Below, in pieces: positions 7,854-17,989 of a DNA stretch of 32,000 bases. The DNA comes from Thermodesulfobacteriota bacterium (GTDB taxonomy: Bacteria > Desulfobacterota > WTBG01 > JAGOGO01). The notes below the pieces were generated by a model. The model searched no databases and was not told where the DNA came from. It saw only the letters and a list, made by a program, of their open reading frames with translations. The first letter of the stretch is position 1; each line of letters opens with the position of its first letter. A program made the translations under genes and the position numbers. The stretch covers positions 2,025,622-2,057,621 of the forward strand of contig CP113000.1 in assembly GCA_026625185.1 (NCBI GenBank). Reading direction: 5' to 3'.

Positions 7854-9640
7854 AAATTCTCCCGGAAATGCTTATTAATAAAATTGCTGCCGGCGAGGTG
7901 ATCGAGAAGCCGGCTTCCGTGGTAAAGGAGCTGGTTGAAAATAGTTTGGACGCCAATGCGAACACTATTTCCGTGACCGTTAAACACGGCGGCAAACAAC
8001 TTATCCGGGTTACCGACAACGGCGAAGGCATGGGCCCTGAGGATGCGATTTCTTCTTTGCAAAGGCATGCGACCAGTAAAATTGAAAATTTAGAGGACAT
8101 CTTTCGCATCCAAAGCTTTGGTTTTCGGGGAGAGGCGCTACCGAGTATTGCGGCGGTTTCGCGGCTTACGCTTTTAACCAGACCTTCGGAGGCGGAATCA
8201 GGCACGGAGATTCATGTAACCGGAGGCGAGATTGAATCAGTTCGAGAGGCAGGAACAGGGTCAGGCACGACAATCGAAGCGGCTGACCTTTTTTTTAATA
8301 TCCCCGCCCGGAAAAAATTTCTTCGCTCCGAACGATCAGAGTTTGTTGCCGTCCTTGATACGCTCACGGTTTTTGCCCTGGGGAACCCGGCGGTTGACTT
8401 CAGGCTTTATAAAGATAATAAGCTGGCAGCGGAGTTTCCTTCTTGTGTAAGCCTCCGGGAAAGGATCGCGCACATCCATGATGAAGATGTGTCGGGGGCC
8501 TTGATTCCTCTTCAGGCGAACACTCCCGAGATAAAGATTTCGGGTTTTATTACTGCTCCGGAAGTAAATCGAGTTAACCGAACCGGGCAGTATTTTTTTA
8601 TTAATTGTCGTCCCATCAAGAGCCCGGCGTTGAGTTTTTCTCTTCTCCACGGGTATGAGGAAATGCTCCCAAGAGGGCGCTATCCCTTAGCTTTCCTTTT
8701 TTTTAACATAGCATTGTCCCGCGTGGATGTGAATGTGCATCCCAATAAAAAGGAGGTGCGGATAGAAAATGAGCGGGAGGTCCAAACGCTTTTAATTGAG
8801 GCTGTCCAGCAAGCTCTTCACACAAAAAATAAATTTCCCACCGTTCAGGTAAGGGGAACTCGCAGACAGGCTGAAAATGGATCTTCTTGGGGGAGAGAAG
8901 GTAGTGCTCCTTATCCGGAATATACTGCTTCTCCCGCGCTTGGTCTCATTCGCGAAGCGCCAGCCGACTCTTTTTCGTTTGAGGGTGCCAACCAAGCCCC
9001 TGGTTTTCCGTTTTTAGGGTCTGACCAGGCACCAAAAGAAGAAAAGACTTTCGAAATGAAAAACCCAAAAATTCTGGGCCAATTCCAGGCAACTTATCTT
9101 GTCGCTGAATGTGAGGGGAAATTATTAGTCATTGACCAACACGCCGCCCATGAGCGGATAATGTATGAAAAAGTTATGGACGTTCTGATGAACTCCCATT
9201 CCCCCTCGCAACGTCACCTTATCCCCATTACTTTTGCGCTTGATTACCGTGAGCAGGAAGTGATGGAGGAATACCTTCCTTTGCTGGAGAAGATGGGATT
9301 CGGAATAAACAACCTTGGCCGCAATACCTTCAGTGTGGATGCTGCTCCTTCTTTTTTAGAGGGCGTTGAACCCAAACAGCTTCTGCTGGATTTCATCCAT
9401 GATGCGATGGAGAGACAAAATTCCGGGAAGGCTTTTGATGAGAAGATGAAGTCAGTGGCGGCAAACATTGCCTGCAAGAGCAAGTCGGTGAAAGGATCTG
9501 CCTATCTTCTTAAGGAAAAAGCGCAGCATCTGGTCGCCGCTCTTTTTCAAACCAAACAGCCCTTCACCTGTCCTCATGGTCGGCCTACCTGCATCACTCT
9601 TACCCATAATGATCTGGAAAAACAATTCGGGCGAAAATAA
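7841..9640 (+). CDS. mutL: DNA mismatch repair protein MutL
   Basis: 599 aa. GHKL ATPase N-terminus (IAAGEVIEKPASVVKELVENSLDA, DNGEGM, GFRGEAL) and a C-terminal endonuclease-type domain (DQHAAHERI...). The start overlaps the mutS end by 13 nt. Confidence 0.97.
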   Translation: MGKIKILPEMLINKIAAGEVIEKPASVVKELVENSLDANANTISVTVKHGGKQLIRVTDNGEGMGPEDAISSLQRHATSKIENLEDIFRIQSFGFRGEALPSIAAVSRLTLLTRPSEAESGTEIHVTGGEIESVREAGTGSGTTIEAADLFFNIPARKKFLRSERSEFVAVLDTLTVFALGNPAVDFRLYKDNKLAAEFPSCVSLRERIAHIHDEDVSGALIPLQANTPEIKISGFITAPEVNRVNRTGQYFFINCRPIKSPALSFSLLHGYEEMLPRGRYPLAFLFFNIALSRVDVNVHPNKKEVRIENEREVQTLLIEAVQQALHTKNKFPTVQVRGTRRQAENGSSWGREGSAPYPEYTASPALGLIREAPADSFSFEGANQAPGFPFLGSDQAPKEEKTFEMKNPKILGQFQATYLVAECEGKLLVIDQHAAHERIMYEKVMDVLMNSHSPSQRHLIPITFALDYREQEVMEEYLPLLEKMGFGINNLGRNTFSVDAAPSFLEGVEPKQLLLDFIHDAMERQNSGKAFDEKMKSVAANIACKSKSVKGSAYLLKEKAQHLVAALFQTKQPFTCPHGRPTCITLTHNDLEKQFGRK

Positions 9641-9717
9641 CTTTTATTACTTCCTCTCCCATCGGGTATAGGATTGAGGTGAGGGGGATTATGCCGTAAC
9701 ATTTGGGAATCTGTACT

Positions 9718-9805
9718 GTAGGGGCAGGCCACCGTGCCTGCCAAAAAACACAACACGCCCCCGCACCTGCCCTTATTCAGGGCAACCACAGGGGGTTGCC
9801 CCTAC
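9718..9805. repeat. cluster of GC-rich hairpin units related to the GTAGGGGC...GCCCCTAC family
   Basis: GTAGGGGCAGGC-CACCG-TGCCTGCC at 9718..9742 and CAGGGCAACC-ACAGG-GGGTTGCCCCTAC at 9778..9805. Both fold as hairpins and share the GTAGGGGC clamp with 483, 16342 and 23500. Confidence 0.6.
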
Positions 9806-10101
9806 TACGCCTCTATTTCATCTATTCGCAATAATCTATGTTTCTCGAAAACAGTCAGGATATCAAGGTGTTTTCCATTGATTCGGTAGACGATTCGATA
9901 TTTTCTAAAAATCAGCTCTCTTATATCGGGGTTGGCAATTTCCGGGACGGTTCTTCCACTAAGAGGATTGTCAGACAAGGACTCTGTGTGCTCAATGATC
10001 TGGTCAACAAATTTTCTCGCTCGATCGGGACTGTCCTGCGATATGAAATCCTCAATCTCGAACAATCGCAACAAAGCTTCATGCGTCCATCTGATTTTCA
10101 T
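9805..10101 (-). CDS. parE: type II toxin, RelE/ParE family
   Basis: ~98 aa: MKIRWTHEALLRLFEIEDFISQDSPDRARKFVDQIIE...YRIVYRINGKHLDILTVFEKHRLL. This is typical ParE/plasmid-stabilisation toxin architecture. The start overlaps the upstream antitoxin stop. Confidence 0.85.
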   Translation of the reverse strand: MKIRWTHEALLRLFEIEDFISQDSPDRARKFVDQIIEHTESLSDNPLSGRTVPEIANPDIRELIFRKYRIVYRINGKHLDILTVFEKHRLLRIDEIEA

Positions 10102-10382
10102 CACCTGCTTCTTCTATCAATCAATGTCGCCTTGAGTTCTTTGGTGCTGTATACATTTCCGGTTTCAGTATCCGCCATCCCTCTTCCGACAGAATCAAGA
10201 AACTCTTTTTTGTAAACCAGTTCATCATAGTCACTGGGGGAGAGGAGAACTCCGGCGGGTTTCCCGTTCTGTGTTATAATCAATGGATGTCCGGCTTTTT
10301 GAATGCTCTTGAACCATTTAGAGATGCCCGTTTTAAATTCTGCGATGGGAACAATATCATTTGAAATTGAAATGGTTTTCAT
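10101..10382 (-). CDS. type II antitoxin, Phd/YefM family
   Basis: 93 aa: MKTISISNDIVPIAEFKTGISKWFKSIQKAGHPLIITQNGKPAGVLLSPSDYDELV. This is the Phd/YefM N-terminal fold signature. RBS AAGGAG upstream; translationally coupled to parE. Confidence 0.85.
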   Translation of the reverse strand: MKTISISNDIVPIAEFKTGISKWFKSIQKAGHPLIITQNGKPAGVLLSPSDYDELVYKKEFLDSVGRGMADTETGNVYSTKELKATLIDRRSR

Positions 10383-10402
10383 GCGGTAACTCCTTATTTT
10401 GG

Positions 10403-10447
10403 TATATTTAATGGTCTAAATATAGGCCAAAATAACGAGTAAATCAA
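10403..10447 (-). promoter_or_regulatory. promoter plus palindromic operator of the phd-parE operon
   Basis: On the minus strand: TTGATT (10447..10442), a 17-nt spacer, then TATATT (10424..10419). The inverted repeat TATATTTA-N6-TAAATATA (10403..10424) overlaps the -10, the usual layout for TA autoregulation. Confidence 0.5.
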
Positions 10448-10556
10448 GTTTTTTTCACACAACAATATTTATATGTATTTTGTATAAAAACCTTAAGACC
10501 GGGCGGGTGGCCTTTTTAAGGCCAAAGAAATAATTTTCAGATATTCTGCCTAGGGA

Positions 10557-10584
10557 AAACCCTTGTGGTTGCCCTTGATGCCGG
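10557..10584. repeat. GC-rich repeat unit downstream of the RHH antitoxin gene
   Basis: AAAACCCTTGTGGTTGCCCTTGATGCCGG. A direct-repeat partner lies at 10917..10944 and an inverted relative at 9775..9795 (TCAGGGCAACCACAGGGGG). Confidence 0.65.
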
Positions 10585-10590
10585 AAATAC

Positions 10591-10875
10591 TTAAGCTCTT
10601 TTTTTTTCGGTTAAATAGCCTGAGACGTATTTATGGATTATGCTGGATATCAGCGTTTGATAGGGAATTCCCTCTTGCGCCGCGATGACCTGTACTTGGT
10701 CCAAATCCTTTGATGACATTCTAATATTTATCCTCTTGTCTTTTTGCAGGGTATTCCTTGCGTATTCTTGCAGTTTCCTGATTTCCGCCTTCGGATTTTT
10801 GACAAGCTTCCATTCATCACGCTCGTAGGACTCTAAAATATCTTTTTCTTCTGCGTCTAATACTGCTTTTTTCAT
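10591..10875 (-). CDS. orphan ribbon-helix-helix (CopG-like) antitoxin
   Basis: From the ATG at 10875 the product is MKKAVLDAEEKDILESYERDEWKLVKNPKAEIRK...KRINIRMSSKDLDQVQVIAAQEGIPYQTLISSIIHKYVSGYL, the typical CopG/RHH antitoxin pattern. The tracked TTG start at 10953 adds 26 aa that are encoded by a repeat unit. No toxin gene is adjacent. Confidence 0.75.
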   Translation of the reverse strand: MKKAVLDAEEKDILESYERDEWKLVKNPKAEIRKLQEYARNTLQKDKRINIRMSSKDLDQVQVIAAQEGIPYQTLISSIIHKYVSGYLTEKKRA

Positions 10876-10916
10876 TTTTGAGACCTCATAAAAATTTGGA
10901 AATTTCTCCCAATCCA

Positions 10917-10944
10917 GAAAAATCCTGCGGTTGTCCCTGATGCC
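10917..10944. repeat. GC-rich repeat unit upstream of the RHH antitoxin gene
   Basis: AAAAATCCTGCGGTTGTCCCTGATGCC is a direct repeat of 10557..10584, with about three-quarters of positions identical by hand alignment. Confidence 0.6.
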
Positions 10945-11083
10945 TTGAGTCAAGAGGCTAATTTTTTAGTAAAGAGGGGCCGGGGGAGTTTGTCAACTAC
11001 ACGGATAGATCGCCATGTCGCAAATTGAAATCAAAACCTTGTTTTTTTTCCGATGTCCGGGGCTGACCCTGTGGGGTTCCGTT

Positions 11084-11108
11084 CCCTTGCCCAGGCCACC
11101 CGCCGCCC
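11084..11108. repeat. cassette-end motif CCCTTGCCCAGGCCACCCGCCGCCC
   Basis: It lies 15 nt downstream (minus sense) of the HExxH gene stop. A near-identical motif lies at 12665..12690, an inverted core GGGCGGGTGGCC at 10501..10512, and a related CAGGCCACC at 9727..9735. Confidence 0.65.
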
Positions 11109-11122
11109 TTGTTATGAGCTGA

Positions 11123-11707
11123 TTATCTATACCTTTGAAAAAGCGATGCCACACTGGCCCATATAGCATCGGTTTCCCGTCTTATAAATTCAACAACGCT
11201 GTCAGGAAGACTTTGACGATCGAAACCCTCCTGAAGTGTATATGCCATTTGTTCCAAAGGACAATTTCGATAGTCAGATTGCATAAGACCTAGGCCGTAG
11301 GCCAGCAAGAAATCATCTACCCCCAGCCGGTCCCATTGGATAACATGAACCAGTTCGTGAAAAAGAAGGCTCTCTGTAGAATGCTGGATGTGACTGACAA
11401 AAACCGTGTCTTTGTAAGTAATACCTGCTTTGGGTATTTTTTCCATTTGTGCTAATTCAGGCAGACCCATACGGCTGAGCGGAGGAAAAGGCACCTTTCC
11501 GTTGACAACAACTGTTTTTGCACTCTTCAGTAGATTAAGCGGGAACACTTTGCCAAGCCGAGGAAAACCGAGGTTGATCACGGGAACAGCATGGTCGAGA
11601 TTCTCTGCTAATGTCTTTTCAATCCACTCCCGAATAACAGGCAGATTAGAATGGAACTTACGTATGAGGTCAAGGTATTCCATAATTTGATTTTTTCCGC
11701 TCGACAC
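11123..11707 (-). CDS. HExxH-motif protein, putative zinc metallopeptidase (DUF4157-like motif context)
   Basis: 186-194 aa; the start is GTG at 11707 or ATG at 11683. It has a single motif, AGITYKDTVFVSHIQHSTESLLFHELVHVIQWDRLG, resembling the HELxHVxQ core of DUF4157/PF13699, and a possible downstream Glu ligand (PLEQMAY). No signal peptide. It lies 30 nt downstream of the TIR-like gene on the same strand. Confidence 0.55.
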   Translation of the reverse strand: MSSGKNQIMEYLDLIRKFHSNLPVIREWIEKTLAENLDHAVPVINLGFPRLGKVFPLNLLKSAKTVVVNGKVPFPPLSRMGLPELAQMEKIPKAGITYKDTVFVSHIQHSTESLLFHELVHVIQWDRLGVDDFLLAYGLGLMQSDYRNCPLEQMAYTLQEGFDRQSLPDSVVEFIRRETDAIWASVASLFQRYR

Positions 11708-11737
11708 GGATTTATCCGCGTTCGGTTGAGTATTATG

Positions 11738-12535
11738 TTATATTACCTTATTCATGTCTATTTCGAAGTTGGCAGCCTTGAGCTCTCTCGCCAATCGCAT
11801 CTTCCATCCTTCACCGTGGTCCATTTTTTCATACACCAGTCCAAATACATCAGATGGAAGTTCAAGGTCTCCTTTGGTGAGAACTAGTGTCTTATCCCTA
11901 CCCAGTTTCGATGCAAGATACCCTAGTTCAAGAATTACGTTCTGACGGGCTCTCAGCCTTGCTTCGGATTCTCCATTCACAGGATAACCTTTATCATCTG
12001 GAGTCATGAGAACGACAGCAAATGCTGCGCGATCAGCGAAAACTTCAAATTTCTCAAGCACGGTCATCCCTTTGTTGATCTGCTCTTGAAGAATAACAGG
12101 CTCTATTCCGAGCCTTTCTAAAAAACGTGCAACCGATTGCTTCGCACCTTCGTCATGCCCATGAACGATAAAGACGGAATTTTTTTTGGGAAGTTCGTTT
12201 TCGATTTCCTTTACACTGAAGCGTTCAACTGTGAATACCCCTTCAGTTTCTATCTCCGACTTCCATCTTCCAGTAATCTTGTTTTCCGATTCAATGACTC
12301 CAATCGCATGCACTTTCCCAAGAGGCAGTCCATGAGGATTCTTGCCAGGAAGTAGATTAAAGGAAATATTATTTCCAACAGTTCCTTCAATTGAGTATTC
12401 GTATTGCCCCAGTGCTGGTTCATGTATTTTCCCAATGCCGAAAATCCGATTGTCTATCTGCTTAATATCAAGAGTGATACCACCCGAGTTTGTGCCGCTT
12501 ATTGTTCCAGTCCAGTATCCTGTTAAATTTTTCAT
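11738..12535 (-). CDS. TIR-like domain protein (COG4271 / PF10137, Cap12-PycTIR class) with an uncharacterised N-terminal domain
   Basis: 265 aa. Residues ~120-265 read SVFIVHGHDEGAKQSVARFLERLGIEPVILQEQINKGMTVLEKFE...AVVLMTPDDKG...RARQNVILELGYLASKLGRDKTLVLTKGDLELPSDVFGLVYEKMD..GWKMRLARELKAANF, which matches the hallmark blocks of the TIR-like nucleotide-binding family. Residues 1-115 (GYWTGTISGTNSGGITLDIKQ...GRWKSEIETEGVFTVERF) are Gly/Thr-rich, look beta-rich, and match no family I recognise. Confidence 0.75.
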   Translation of the reverse strand: MKNLTGYWTGTISGTNSGGITLDIKQIDNRIFGIGKIHEPALGQYEYSIEGTVGNNISFNLLPGKNPHGLPLGKVHAIGVIESENKITGRWKSEIETEGVFTVERFSVKEIENELPKKNSVFIVHGHDEGAKQSVARFLERLGIEPVILQEQINKGMTVLEKFEVFADRAAFAVVLMTPDDKGYPVNGESEARLRARQNVILELGYLASKLGRDKTLVLTKGDLELPSDVFGLVYEKMDHGEGWKMRLARELKAANFEIDMNKVI

Positions 12536-12664
12536 TCTTATATCCTTTCTATCAGCAATATTGCACCAAAAGTAAAAGCACCCAATAGGGTCGTGTCTAC
12601 ACTTTTACGAAATAATAAATTGGCATCTTTGCAATGGGTAGACCTGATCCCCATGCCTTCTTGA

Positions 12665-12690
12665 CCCTTGTCCAGGCCACCTGCCCGATC
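12665..12690. repeat. cassette-end motif CCCTTGTCCAGGCCACCTGCCCGATC
   Basis: It lies 28 nt downstream (minus sense) of the higA stop and matches 11084..11105 at 20 of 22 positions. Confidence 0.65.
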
Positions 12691-12717
12691 GGCTGAAAGA
12701 ACACCGTTGGAGTGGCC

Positions 12718-13002
12718 TTAAGCGGCAACATGTTTAATATGTTCATAAACAGTCTCATCAATCCGGCTGATCTCCCAGTTGTTTTGCAAGTTCAGCCAAA
12801 ACTGAGGGCCGCCACCCAAGACCTTTGAGAGCTTCAATGCCATTTCTGCGCTTATGCCTCGCTTACCACGACATATTTCATTAATTGTTTTCGGTAACAC
12901 CCCGATATGTTTTGCGAGCGCCGATTGAGTCAGGCTAACCTCGTCAAGTTCATCTTTCAGCACTTCGCCGGGATGAACAGGGGTGTAATGTGATTTCTTC
13001 AT
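12718..13002 (-). CDS. higA: HigA-family antitoxin (XRE helix-turn-helix)
   Basis: 94 aa: HPGEVLKDELDEVSLTQSALAKHIGVLPKTINEICRGKRGISAEMALKLSKVLGGGPQFWLNLQNNWEI. This is the canonical HigA/VapI sequence pattern. Confidence 0.9.
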   Translation of the reverse strand: MKKSHYTPVHPGEVLKDELDEVSLTQSALAKHIGVLPKTINEICRGKRGISAEMALKLSKVLGGGPQFWLNLQNNWEISRIDETVYEHIKHVAA

Positions 13003-13019
13003 TTTTTAGGCTACGTTAA

Positions 13020-13073
13020 TTAATGGTAGTCAAGAATCTCGACATCTACCGCGTTTTCTTCTTCCCATTTAAA
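13020..13073 (-). pseudogene. higB: higB toxin remnant (last ~17 codons only)
   Basis: The minus strand reads FKWEEENAVDVEILDYH*, ending 17 nt upstream of the higA ATG. This matches the conserved HigB C-terminus (..F.FE.GNA.DVD..DYH). The reading frame is cut off at 13071 by the T-run of a repeat module. Confidence 0.7.
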
Positions 13074-13240
13074 ACAAAAAAAGACCCATCGCCTTTATTT
13101 CCGGTGATTCGGCCTTATTATTTTATCAATTTTAAAAACCCATTTCATTAATGCCACTCTTTTTATGTATCCCGATTATCTTTATGTGGAGTTGATATTA
13201 TTCTCTTTTTTAATCCCGACGAAGATAAAAATCAACAAGA
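13071..13240 (-). repeat. copy A of a ~165-bp repeat module with promoter-like and terminator-like ends on the minus strand (sRNA candidate)
   Basis: By hand alignment roughly four-fifths of positions match 24498..24665. Minus strand: TTGATT (13235..13230), 17 nt, TAAAAA (13212..13207), about 120 nt, an imperfect hairpin GGCCGAAUCACC...GGCGAUGGGUC, then U7GU4 (13082..13071). Confidence 0.75.
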
Positions 13241-13317
13241 AAAGAAGTCGAAAAGTCGAAGGGGCAAAAGTTTTACCCTGACCGTTCGTTAAACTCACGG
13301 TGACAAAGGGTGTCCCC

Positions 13318-13378
13318 CTGAGCTTGTCGAAGGGTGAACATAACTCATTGATAATTTGTCATGCTTCGACAGGCTCAG
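13318..13378. repeat. inverted repeat CTGAGCTTGTCGAAG / CTTCGACAGGCTCAG
   Basis: The arms at 13318..13332 and 13364..13378 are complementary at 14 of 15 positions. Confidence 0.6.
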
Positions 13379-13520
13379 CATGACAAACCCGCGAATTTTA
13401 CTTTTTACGAATTCATCCTTTCGTGGGGACAATTCAATCTTTTGTTTGAAAATAAGAGTTTTTTTAGTAAAATACCCCCATACTAATGCAGAAAATAACA
13501 CTTGCATAAATTCCGAGGCC

Positions 13521-13598
13521 GTCATTTCCGCCCCGTATCAGATACGGGGCGGAAATCCAGCCCAAAAACACTGGATTCCGGGTCAAGCCCGGAATGAC
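13521..13598. repeat. composite nested-palindrome element
   Basis: Outer arms GTCATTTCC...GGAATGAC. A perfect 14-bp hairpin TTTCCGCCCCGTAT-CAG-ATACGGGGCGGAAA (13525..13555). An inner pair GGAAATCCAG...CTGGATTCC. A second hairpin ATTCCGGG-TCAAG-CCCGGAAT (13575..13595). Confidence 0.7.
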
Positions 13599-13645
13599 AA
13601 ATAAAGCAAAGATATTTCTGAGTCACTACCCTATGAGTTTTATAA

Positions 13646-14329
13646 GTGATGAATGAAGTAATCGCCGTTATTGAAGATGAGCCGGATATCATCGAACTGA
13701 TCTCCCTTCATCTTAAGAAAGCTGGGTTTCGGGTGGAAGGTTTTGAGACCGGAGATGGGTTTTTTAAATTTCTCCCTAAGAGAATACCGGATCTGGTGAT
13801 CCTGGATTTAATGCTGCCGGATGCTGATGGTTTGGAAATTTGCAAGTTCCTTAAAAAGAAAGATGAGTTTTCGGCAATCCCGGTCATCATGGTGACCGCC
13901 AAGGGAGAGGAGACGGATAAAATTTTGGGGTTAGAATTGGGAGCCGATGATTATGTCACCAAGCCTTTTTCGCCTAAGGAACTGACGGCGCGCGTAAAAG
14001 CAGTGTTGAGGAGAAAAACCCAAAAGGAGGAAGCCAAGGTTATTGAGATAGGTCAAATTCTTTCCATCAATCCTGATAAATTTGAGGCTTTGGTAGAAGG
14101 ACAAAAAATAGAATTAACCTCCACTGAGTTTAGAATCTTAGAGCTTCTGGCTTCCAAAAAAGGCTGGGTTTTTACCCGTGATAAAATATTGGATTATCTG
14201 TGGGGTGATGAGAAATTAGTTTTGGATCGCACGATAGATGTGCACGTTAAAAATTTGCGCGAAAAATTAGGGAAAGCAAAGACCTTGATTAAGAACGTAC
14301 GGGGTATCGGCTATAAGGTCGAGGAATGA
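13646..14329 (+). CDS. phoB: OmpR/PhoB-family response regulator
   Basis: 227 aa with a receiver domain (DLVILDLMLPDADG, TAKGEE) and a winged-helix output domain (LTSTEFRILELL...VRGIGYKV). It sits next to a PhoR-like kinase and the pst-phoU genes. The likely true start is the ATG at 13649. Confidence 0.85.
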   Translation: MMNEVIAVIEDEPDIIELISLHLKKAGFRVEGFETGDGFFKFLPKRIPDLVILDLMLPDADGLEICKFLKKKDEFSAIPVIMVTAKGEETDKILGLELGADDYVTKPFSPKELTARVKAVLRRKTQKEEAKVIEIGQILSINPDKFEALVEGQKIELTSTEFRILELLASKKGWVFTRDKILDYLWGDEKLVLDRTIDVHVKNLREKLGKAKTLIKNVRGIGYKVEE

Positions 14330-16670: not shown

Positions 16671-17989
16671 ATGATGAGCAATGCAAAACATGAAAATGAA
16701 ATCAAAAATATTGTGGAGATTTGGGCTTTACTTGAGGTTATGGTTAGCACGATAATTTTTGTTTTTACTTTAACCACCCTCATGGCTCACGCGAATGAAA
16801 TTGAGACGTTGTGTAACAAATTGGTGGAGAAAGGAAATTTAACCCCCTCGGAAGCGCAGACGGTTCTTGTTGAAACGCGGTAGGAAGAGCGAAAAAGAAT
16901 TGCTCAGGTAAAACACGATAATCTTCCGGAATGGATTCAAAAGATTAAACTCACCGGGGATTTTAGATTGCGGGAGCAGTACGAGTATCGCTCAGACGTT
17001 GATGAGCGTTGGATAACACGGATCCGCTTACGGTTAGGATTGGAAACACAAGTGGCCGATAAATTTAAGGTCGGTTTTGGCATAGCTTCCGGCAGCAGCG
17101 CCGACCATCGTTCTACCAATCAGACTTTACAGGACAGCTTCACTCATAAGCCAATCAACATCGATTATGCCTACGGGCAATACACTCCTTTCAAGTGGTT
17201 AACCCTGGTGGGTGGAAAATTTAAAAATCCTCTTTTTAACCCGGATGATCTTATCTGGGACACCGACATAAACCCCGAAGGCGGAGCCGCACAATTTAAT
17301 TATAGAGTGTGCGATAGCCTGGGGTTGTTTAGCAATGTGGGTTTCTTTATCCTTGATGAGAGACAGCCTTCCTCTAAAAATACGACGAGTGCACAAGGAC
17401 AGGATCCCCTTATGTATGTTGTCCAACCGGGTTTTGAATGGAAAATAAAAACCTCTGCTTTAAAAGATATTACCAACCTGAAGGCCGCCGTTGCGTACCA
17501 CGGGTTACCCATGTGAAACACAATGTTTTAGATTATTCCAGTGGAACTAACACCTTCGAAAAAAAAGTTTTAAAATATGATTATAATGCCTTTAATACGA
17601 ATTTTCAGTTAGGATTTATGCCCGAAGGATTTATCGTTCCCTATGCGGGGATATTTGGAGAATTTGTGTATAATCCTGATCTCCCGAAAAGCAATATGGG
17701 ATGGCTTCTGGGCGCAAAATTTGGCGTTGAAAAAGTATCAGATAAAGGTCAGTGGCAGTTGCAATATAATTATCGTCGCCTGGGTAGAGACGCGGTTCTC
17801 GATATTTTGCCGGATTCTGATTTCTACGGCGGTGCTAAGGATGTTAGAGGCCATGAGGGGATATTCGAATACGGAATTTATAAAAATGTGAGTGTAGCAC
17901 TGGATTGTTACAATGCGCGAAGGCTCCATCAGCAGGAGACCAATAAAAAGGAGCGCCTTTTACAGCTTGATTGGAACCTGAAATTTTAG
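16671..17989 (+). pseudogene. outer-membrane porin gene disrupted by an in-frame TAG and a frameshift
   Basis: ORFs 16671..16883 and 16968..17516 share one frame, and translation continues straight through TAG 16881..16883 (..ETR*EERKRIAQVKHDNLPEWIQKIKLTGDFRLREQYEYR..). The third part, 17438..17989, is in another frame and ends ..LLQLDWNLKF, the terminal Phe of beta-barrel OMPs. Adding one G to the run at 17501..17503 would give ..AVAYHGVTHVKHNVLDYSSG.. as a continuous frame. Confidence 0.7.

Follow-up and report, generated by a model that had tools for sequence, protein, structure and literature searches.

We analysed a stretch of 32,000 nucleotides from a Thermodesulfobacteriota bacterium (assembly GCA_026625185.1, contig CP113000.1, positions 2,025,622 to 2,057,621; hereafter the window), in which two neighbouring genes had been singled out from the sequence as a candidate undescribed two-gene defence module (the original prediction). 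Both are present in an open reading frame (ORF) listing of the window, co-directional and on the minus strand: gene 1 (11738–12535, 265 aa from its ATG), a candidate defence gene of the PDC-S35 type whose product joins a predicted beta-barrel to a TIR domain, and gene 2 (11123–11683, 186 aa), which encodes a small zincin-like protein. The reading that we favour, and to which we give an about even chance of being right, is that gene 1 acts as a self-contained sensor-effector that degrades nicotinamide adenine dinucleotide (NAD; a NADase), with gene 2 as a facultative zincin accessory and not an obligatory subunit.

The C-terminal part of gene 1 (residues 121–239, 11819–12175) is a TIR domain of the Cap12/PycTIR class, as had been predicted. 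It matched the Pfam profile PF10137 with E = 3.8e-37 (127.4 bits against a gathering cut-off of 24.7), over profile positions 2–118 of 119, and it retains the conserved active-site Glu motif. A profile of the gene 1 family matched the solved structures of Cap12 (9lmq, 7un8) and PycTIR (8jsj) through R-x-N-V-x-x-E-x-G, and Glu203, whose codon (11927–11929) lies in RQNVILELGY, is invariant in 35 homologues and aligns with the Glu of the Cap12/PycTIR motif. The catalytic role of this glutamate is established for the Cap12/PycTIR class, and TIRs of the PF10137 class are NAD-depleting effectors rather than signal producers; Glu203 is presumed to be the catalytic residue, and from family membership we infer that gene 1 is a NADase. 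The motifs quoted in the original prediction could be read in the translations (FIVHGHD, RARQNVILELGY, LPSD, WKMRLARELKAA, GYWTGTISGTNSGGITLDIKQ, GRWKSEIETEGVFTVERF and FHELVHVIQW), except that LTPDD reads LMTPDD.

All five PDC-S35 models of PADLOC matched gene 1 (E = 1e-47 to 1.3e-67). PDC-S35 is a computational, single-gene ‘phage defence candidate’ family in that library and is unvalidated. The models align gene 1 only at residues ~80/107–264 (107–264 in the best model), and the N-terminal domain of gene 1 therefore differs from the ones they represent. Taken alone, gene 1 is thus a new member of a candidate family that is catalogued but unvalidated, and it brings a new sensor module. We rejected the possibility that it is an orthologue of Cap12 or PycTIR, or a member of a CBASS or Pycsar system. 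The NCBIfam Cap12 equivalog scored 33.4 bits against a cut-off of 450; the PADLOC PycTIR model matched (E = 9e-10) through the TIR part alone; and neither Pfam nor PADLOC found a STING, SAVED or cyclic nucleotide-binding domain (CNBD, PF00027) in gene 1. The prediction that no cyclase, STING, SAVED or CNBD gene accompanies the pair also held, for the adjacent genes and for those scanned within ~6 kb.

The N-terminal domain of gene 1 (residues 1–112, 12200–12535) had been described as unrecognised and probably all-beta, and both descriptions proved right. It has no Pfam, NCBIfam or PADLOC match, and an AlphaFold2 model based on an alignment of 28 homologues consists of eight antiparallel strands (pLDDT 93.8). 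In a Foldseek search of the PDB, the best matches were the designed ligand-binding barrels 6czj and 6czi (TM-score ~0.78), and lipocalin-like proteins, avidins and the nitrobindin-like Rv2717c were also found. As modelled, the domain is an eight-stranded up-and-down, calycin-like beta-barrel; the calycin fold typically holds a small ligand.

To define the distribution of this barrel, we searched 1.84 billion representatives exhaustively with a barrel profile. It occurs in 398 clusters (167 at E ≤ 1e-10), a frequency of ~2e-7, nearly always at residues 1–110 of host proteins that range from 60 to 1,070 aa. Its partners among the best 150 include PF10137 TIRs (21), KAP NTPases (PifA, QatA, PDC-S20-like; 6), ThsB-like TIR_2 domains (6), nucleoside deoxyribosyltransferase (NDT)-like domains (5), a PD-T4-6-type kinase and TPR/NPHP3 proteins, and one locus (L081) encodes a fusion to FRG/PDC-S15. 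Of 91 representatives with a length of 200 aa or more, 45 fall into the largest barrel group; its members are typically 340–365 aa long and have in common a C-terminal domain of ~230 aa (e.g., P0394, P0399, and P0401). The 25 Pfam families listed as most frequent do not account for this domain, the group not having been scanned individually. The PDC-S35-type TIRs of prophages and plasmids carry other N-domains, either helical modules or a ~65-aa domain with the pattern NGxxVNxYxxGKxxVQGK. The latter, found in many prophage PDC-S35 TIRs (L116–L125, L005, L006), presumably resembles the N-terminal domain of RNase HIII. Scans of viral collections likewise returned TIRs with other N-domains only (30 loci). 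Collectively, these results indicate that the barrel is one of several interchangeable N-modules on the PF10137 TIR and is common to many defence-type effectors. Such interchangeability and wide reuse are characteristic of domains that sense or regulate. As a shared N-terminal module the barrel appears to be undescribed, as far as our limited search of libraries and literature goes.

Gene 1 has more than 7,488 homologue clusters, and its full architecture is kept at ~60% identity across phyla (Verrucomicrobiota, Pseudomonadota, Acidobacteriota, Planctomycetota, and others). We inspected 12 independent barrel-TIR loci. In Opitutus terrae the homologue is solitary amid housekeeping genes, and it is also solitary in Methylocucumis, in Crenothrix and in a metagenome-assembled genome (MAG) of Desulfobulbaceae (L002–L004). 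In Erwinia (L131/L132, 6001–6804), a full-length barrel-TIR gene with ~61% identity is a single moron in a P2-like prophage, between the tail-completion gene S and the baseplate gene V. In Klebsiella and E. coli, the homologue is the first cargo gene after the integrase of an integrative mobilisable element. A homologue with 77% identity (P0004) shares its island with Shedu-type, IS91 and integrase genes and is followed by a small HNH protein; we considered this downstream gene as a relative of gene 2 and rejected it, as the two are unrelated. Because homologues persist alone in many genomes, gene 1 is probably not constitutively toxic.

A PDC-S35 TIR protein of 299 aa with a helical N-domain is encoded on the F plasmid (E. 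coli NZ_CP011496, 44750–45929; L157, 3433–4612), where its gene is preceded by an overlapping gene for a 96-aa hypothetical protein and has on one side the anti-phage gene ppl and on the other the pif locus, in which a P-loop NTPase gene stands beside pifC. Its relatives are found on 1,149 enterobacterial plasmid records. We asked whether it has the same architecture as gene 1 and rejected this, given its helical N-domain and the lack of a barrel-HMM (hidden Markov model) match.

The class of the TIR raises the alternative that gene 1 is an orphan effector of nucleotide signalling, of the CBASS, Pycsar or type III CRISPR kind, whose synthase is encoded elsewhere and whose barrel is the nucleotide receptor. 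PycTIR has an identical layout, with the sensor N-terminal and the TIR C-terminal, and small beta-barrels are the cyclic-nucleotide receptors of CBASS Cap15 and of the Panoptes 2TM-barrel effector. However, the barrel of gene 1 is not a CNBD, the Cap12 equivalog score given above is far too low, and the gene travels as a single moron in a prophage and as cargo of a mobilisable element. Moreover, no cyclase or nucleotidyltransferase adjoins the gene 1 homologues in the 12 contexts, and no cyclase adjoins gene 1 in the window. The sole cyclase seen near any homologue, a class III nucleotide cyclase (PF00211; L136, 9392–10765), is separated from the barrel-TIR gene by ~2.6 kb and three genes and is encoded on the other strand; its presence there is probably coincidental. 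We consider the orphan-effector explanation distinctly unlikely.

Gene 2 begins most likely at Met9 (ATG at 11683), as shown by an alignment of 30 homologues and an independent gene call on L141; the ORF itself reaches a GTG at 11707 (194 aa, the numbering used below for residues). It belongs to a ‘long’ subfamily of 516 close homologues of ~184 aa, all of which are unnamed and none of which has a Pfam domain; a database entry identical to gene 2 comes from a 3.3-Mb contig of a Thermodesulfobacteriota MAG. Its AlphaFold2 model (pLDDT 92.5, pTM 0.90) contains an N-terminal helical region, a small three-stranded sheet, a helix with the HExxH motif (104–135) and a following helix with PxE (142–155). 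The HELVH motif (H117-E118-x-x-H121, 11345–11359), followed by Q124, is invariant as HExxHxxQ in the long subfamily and in a ‘short’ one (~153 aa, 3,318 clusters), and the two subfamilies, which hhalign relates with 97% probability (E = 5e-11), also have an invariant W and PxE in common. P150 and E152 are invariant even in a divergent Geobacter homologue, which makes Glu152 (codon 11252–11254) a candidate third metal ligand. Together, the subfamilies form an unnamed superfamily of ~3,800 clusters, at a database frequency of ~7e-7; scans of viral collections gave a single short-type locus. The best fold matches of the C-terminal half in BFVD were two unnamed small phage proteins (E = 3e-3 and 1e-2), followed by a phage DUF4157 protein (E = 0.08, TMt 0.73) and then by metallopeptidase, lethal factor and SprT-like entries. 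The HExxH motif in a DUF4157-like context, as originally proposed, is consistent with this fold match and with the position of a sub-threshold PF13699 match. From motif and model, we take gene 2 for a minimal zincin that is DUF4157-like, cytosolic and stand-alone and that belongs to an undescribed superfamily. Published work on DUF4157 deals with contractile injection systems only, and no genes for such a system turned up among the window genes scanned or read.

We then asked how often the two genes occur together, using a long-subfamily HMM that was built without the sequences in question and applied to the ORFs downstream of barrel-TIR genes. Two loci, L001 from Geobacter (E = 1.5e-6) and L136/L137 (E = 8e-10), have a gene 2-like ORF directly after the barrel-TIR gene. 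Both ORFs are of the short subfamily and have 39% identity to each other. On a 74-kb JGI contig, a protein of 259 aa (P0366) starts with the barrel and keeps 35 residues of the TIR before it runs in frame into gene 2 at about residue 78, so that the C-terminal two-thirds of the gene 2-like zincin are retained; apparently it is a decayed gene 1-gene 2 pair, inactivated by an in-frame deletion. With the window, a gene of the gene 2 superfamily thus stands directly downstream of the barrel-TIR gene in 4 of 12 contexts, at least 10^5-fold above its database frequency. The pairing of gene 1 with gene 2 is recurrent but facultative. It is not listed in PADLOC, in a 2025 systematic survey of TIR systems (text or supplements) or in the NetFlax network paper, and within this limited search the pairing with a DUF4157-like zincin appears to be undescribed. 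The original claim that the pair matches no named system therefore stands for the pairing, and not for gene 1 by itself, which falls into PDC-S35.

The layout of the locus also treats the two genes as one unit. The original prediction placed them 30 nt apart; because gene 2 most likely starts at Met9, the spacer is probably 54 nt (11684–11737), and a scan of it found no terminator-like site. The two genes probably share a transcript. Exactly four copies of the 8-mer GGTGGCCT are present in the window (9726–9733, 10506–10513, 11093–11100, and 12674–12681), compared with 0.67 expected, and 0 of 100 shuffles reached four. Each inter-module spacer of the surrounding gene islet holds a single copy; none lies between gene 1 and gene 2, nor between the phd and parE genes of the neighbouring toxin-antitoxin (TA) pair, which is flanked by the copies at 10506–10513 and 9726–9733. 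An extended 21-mer, GGCRGGTGGCCTGGRCAAGGG, has two matches in the window on the minus strand, with 0 expected: one upstream of gene 1 (12665–12685) and one 19–39 nt beyond the stop codon of gene 2 (11084–11104). This direct repeat brackets the pair, and from the bracket and the placement of GGTGGCCT it follows that gene 1 and gene 2 are delimited as one unit, like the TA pair next to them.

Seen from gene 2, the picture is broader. We examined 80 metagenome loci with long-type homologues (39–70% identity). Upstream neighbours are co-directional in 55 of 66 cases (83%), and 36 of the 66 end within 150 nt. Long-type gene 2 also adjoins a barrel-ThsB-like-TIR gene (L025/L026) and the barrel-FRG gene (L081), which makes three of the 80 loci for a barrel with a frequency of ~2e-7; a broadened HMM found no further divergent barrels among the gene 2 neighbours beyond these three. 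What these adjacencies have in common is the barrel and not the TIR. A PADLOC scan of the upstream neighbours was swamped by models of type I specificity subunits and gave no usable fraction.

Short-type genes have other steady companions. In seven places with differing outer flanks (L142–L148), the zincin gene follows a gene for a 153-aa DUF6210 protein, and this cassette is constant, with a 47-nt gap (e.g., L142, 3492–4462). No paper in the literature at hand mentions DUF6210, and the idea that it is a hidden barrel was rejected (hhalign probability 0.2%). Elsewhere (L149–L155; e.g., L149, 3524–4465), the short-type gene follows a gene for a 141-aa protein with four transmembrane segments, in an islet that holds MNT/HEPN and RelE/MqsA modules and is inserted among his genes. 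On plasmids, it is solo or amid small hypothetical genes.

This promiscuity is what a TA-like module might look like, with the TIR NADase as the toxin and gene 2 as a promiscuous neutraliser that follows the logic of Panacea, an antitoxin domain with many unrelated toxins as partners. The superfamily lies downstream of, and co-directional with, genes as different as those for a TIR, a four-transmembrane protein and DUF6210; the high share of co-directional and close upstream neighbours fits as well, the islet in the window is made of TA modules, and P0366 has lost the catalytic part of the TIR. A precedent for hyperpromiscuous antitoxin domains exists (PMC8832971, PMC10440598). We nevertheless regard this explanation as rather unlikely: gene 1 homologues persist alone, so that constitutive toxicity of the TIR is improbable; solo copies of gene 2 exist as well; an invariant metal site of catalytic type would be needless for an antitoxin that only binds; and the NetFlax paper mentions neither a zincin nor a TIR node.

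The barrel-ThsB-like TIR beside gene 2 in L026 brings up a Thoeris-like arrangement, in which the TIR would make a signal and gene 2 would be the responding effector. PF10137-class TIRs, however, are known as NAD-depleting effectors; the TIR of gene 1 is of that type and not a ThsB, gene 2 has no PADLOC match and no recognisable ligand-sensing domain (SLOG, Macro), and it pairs with non-TIR genes as well. Two-gene TIR operons with novel effectors are common, and 29 putative types were described in the 2025 survey (bioRxiv 10.64898/2025.12.03.692087). That survey excluded the TIRs of CBASS and Pycsar and those that stand alone, and neither its text nor its supplements name a metallopeptidase or DUF4157 partner. 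A Thoeris-like role is highly improbable.

A number of observations weigh against the favoured reading. The 12 contexts are a small and non-random sample, and 8 of them lack gene 2; conversely, a PF10137 TIR is found in 0 of the 80 long-type gene 2 loci, anywhere in the flanks. On these counts, we rejected an obligate two-gene system, and of the two-gene module as originally proposed, the recurrence in 4 of 12 contexts and the 21-nt bracket remain. The short type of gene 2 pairs with unrelated upstream genes or stands solo, so gene 2 clearly also serves a function that does not depend on gene 1. A promoter-like sequence, TAGACA-17-CATAAT (11760–11732), overlaps the end of gene 1 and could allow separate expression of gene 2. 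The zincin assignment itself involves a PF13699 (DUF4157/eCIS_core) match below threshold (15.4 bits against 22, E = 0.022), which is the sole library match of gene 2 and lies at HExxH, with 12.8–14.7 bits at the same place in each superfamily member tested, and neither sequence profiles nor Foldseek against the PDB found a significant relative of gene 2 among solved structures. The barrel could be an oligomerisation or protein-binding module. Finally, a limited literature search found no paper or experimental work on PDC-S35.

Some of these points would also be expected if the two genes were functionally unrelated, small mobile accessory genes that gather in the same variable islets, with their adjacency a by-product. 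Most gene 1 homologues are solo, and the neighbours of gene 2 are extremely heterogeneous: 108 of 130 are singletons, and they range over restriction-modification, HNH, TA, integrase and housekeeping genes. Of the two closest homologues of gene 2 (73–74% identity), one is preceded by DUF1156/DUF499-HEPN genes and the other by ligA, and the promoter-like site stands in front of gene 2. What makes this explanation unlikely is that chance gathering would have to account for four immediate, co-directional downstream adjacencies at the enrichment given above, involving two gene 2 subfamilies; for three more adjacencies with other barrel proteins; for the 21-nt repeats that bracket the pair as a unit; and for the in-frame deletion in P0366 that fused both genes.

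If gene 1 is indeed a sensor-effector and gene 2 its accessory, the pair might work as follows. The barrel would sense a trigger, which could be a phage component or, in keeping with the fold, a small ligand. The TIR, if it behaves like those of Cap12 and PycTIR, would be inactive until the N-domain is triggered and would then oligomerise, deplete NAD+ and abort the phage infection. Gene 2 would act through the barrel-bearing protein, as a protease that processes or restrains it or as a binding partner; we infer this link through the barrel because gene 2 is repeatedly found beside barrel-bearing proteins, and its wider distribution shows that it also has other clients or an independent role. 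A bolder version, which we put forward tentatively and consider unlikely, is that the barrel is a portable sensor or docking module on many effector types (two TIR classes, FRG, KAP NTPases and a kinase) and the zincin a promiscuous protease that recognises barrel proteins besides other clients and switches them on or off by cleavage, the two together forming an undescribed two-part immune control. If true, this would be a bacterial analogue of protease-gated immune effectors.

The pair is part of an islet of minus-strand modules located between mutL and a phoB/phoR-like pair, and the prediction of a TA neighbourhood was accurate. The order is an HTH_3 (HigA-like) gene (12718–13002; PF01381, E = 2.8e-10), gene 1, gene 2, a CopG/BrnA-like antitoxin-type gene (10591–10953; PF12441, E = 8e-6, slightly under the cut-off) and, as the last module, the Phd-ParE pair (9805–10382; PF02604, E = 1e-16, and PF05016, E = 2.5e-17). 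The same order is found in an identical JGI contig, with the HTH_3 side in L140 and the CopG-like side in L141. Co-directional modules separated by spacer repeats suggested an integron cassette array, which we rejected: the region 9600–13700 contains no attC pair of the form RYYYAAC...GTTRRRY, the spacers fold as single-stranded DNA no better than shuffled sequence (z-scores −0.1 to −1.6), the window contains no tRNA, and no integrase was recognised among its ORFs, those beyond the islet having mostly been assessed on their first ~90 residues only. GGTGGCCT is possibly a REP-like (repetitive extragenic palindromic) element or a recombination scar, and is not an attC site. The HigA-like gene has no recognisable HigB-type toxin ORF upstream. 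The 640 nt upstream of it (13003–13645) contain a perfect 16-nt palindrome (13524–13556), and Rfam gave just two small RNA matches there, both far below threshold. Further away in the window, two overlapping ORFs (16968–17516 and 17438–17989) match positions 158–323 and 433–535 of the 535-position Porin_5 profile, which suggests a frameshifted porin gene or an error in the MAG assembly.

Stand-alone TIRs have been left out of systematic surveys since nothing about them indicates how an infection is sensed. For gene 1, the sensor may be a confidently modelled barrel that has no family annotation and is common to at least half a dozen defence-type architectures, and one barrel ligand or trigger could explain the activation of PDC-S35, PDC-S15, PDC-S20-like, ThsB-like and PD-T4-6-like fusions alike. 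On the side of gene 2, ~3,800 small zincin-like proteins form an unnamed superfamily that is repeatedly the second gene of two-gene cassettes and has never been studied. Tractable experimental models exist, since both the F plasmid, next to ppl and the pif locus, and a P2-like prophage carry relatives of gene 1.

Among the known systems close to gene 1 is PDC-S35: the TIR matches all of its models, and both are single genes on mobile elements (prophage, plasmid, island), the family including the F-plasmid ‘nucleotide-binding protein’ WP_000963206. The two differ in the N-domain, which is a barrel in gene 1 but helical in the F-plasmid type and a ~65-aa domain in the phage types, and in the zincin gene, which recurs downstream of gene 1 whereas PDC-S35 has no second gene. 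PycTIR (8jsj) has the same class of TIR, the same succession of N-terminal sensor and C-terminal TIR, and a NADase that is switched on by a ligand. Its own sensor, however, is a CRP-type CNBD, in which helices surround a six-stranded barrel, and the gene of PycTIR neighbours that of a pyrimidine cyclase, whereas gene 1 has a bare eight-stranded meander barrel, lacks a CNBD signature and has no cyclase gene beside it. Cap12/TIR-STING (7un8, 9lmq) belongs to the same TIR family, with the R-x-N-V-x-x-E-x-G motif, but its TIR is N-terminal and followed by a STING sensor in a CD-NTase operon, none of which applies to gene 1. Gene 2 resembles DUF4157/eCIS_core proteins in its HExxHxxQ motif, in the sub-threshold profile matches and in fold (TMt 0.73 to the phage DUF4157 protein); DUF4157 is the N-domain of a large toxin, whereas members of the gene 2 superfamily are stand-alone, cytosolic proteins of 153–186 aa with an N-region of their own. 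In genomic habit, gene 2 is reminiscent of Panacea/DUF4065, likewise a small conserved family that lies beside many unrelated upstream genes in two-gene cassettes; the two have no sequence relationship, and gene 2, unlike Panacea, keeps a metal site of the enzyme type.

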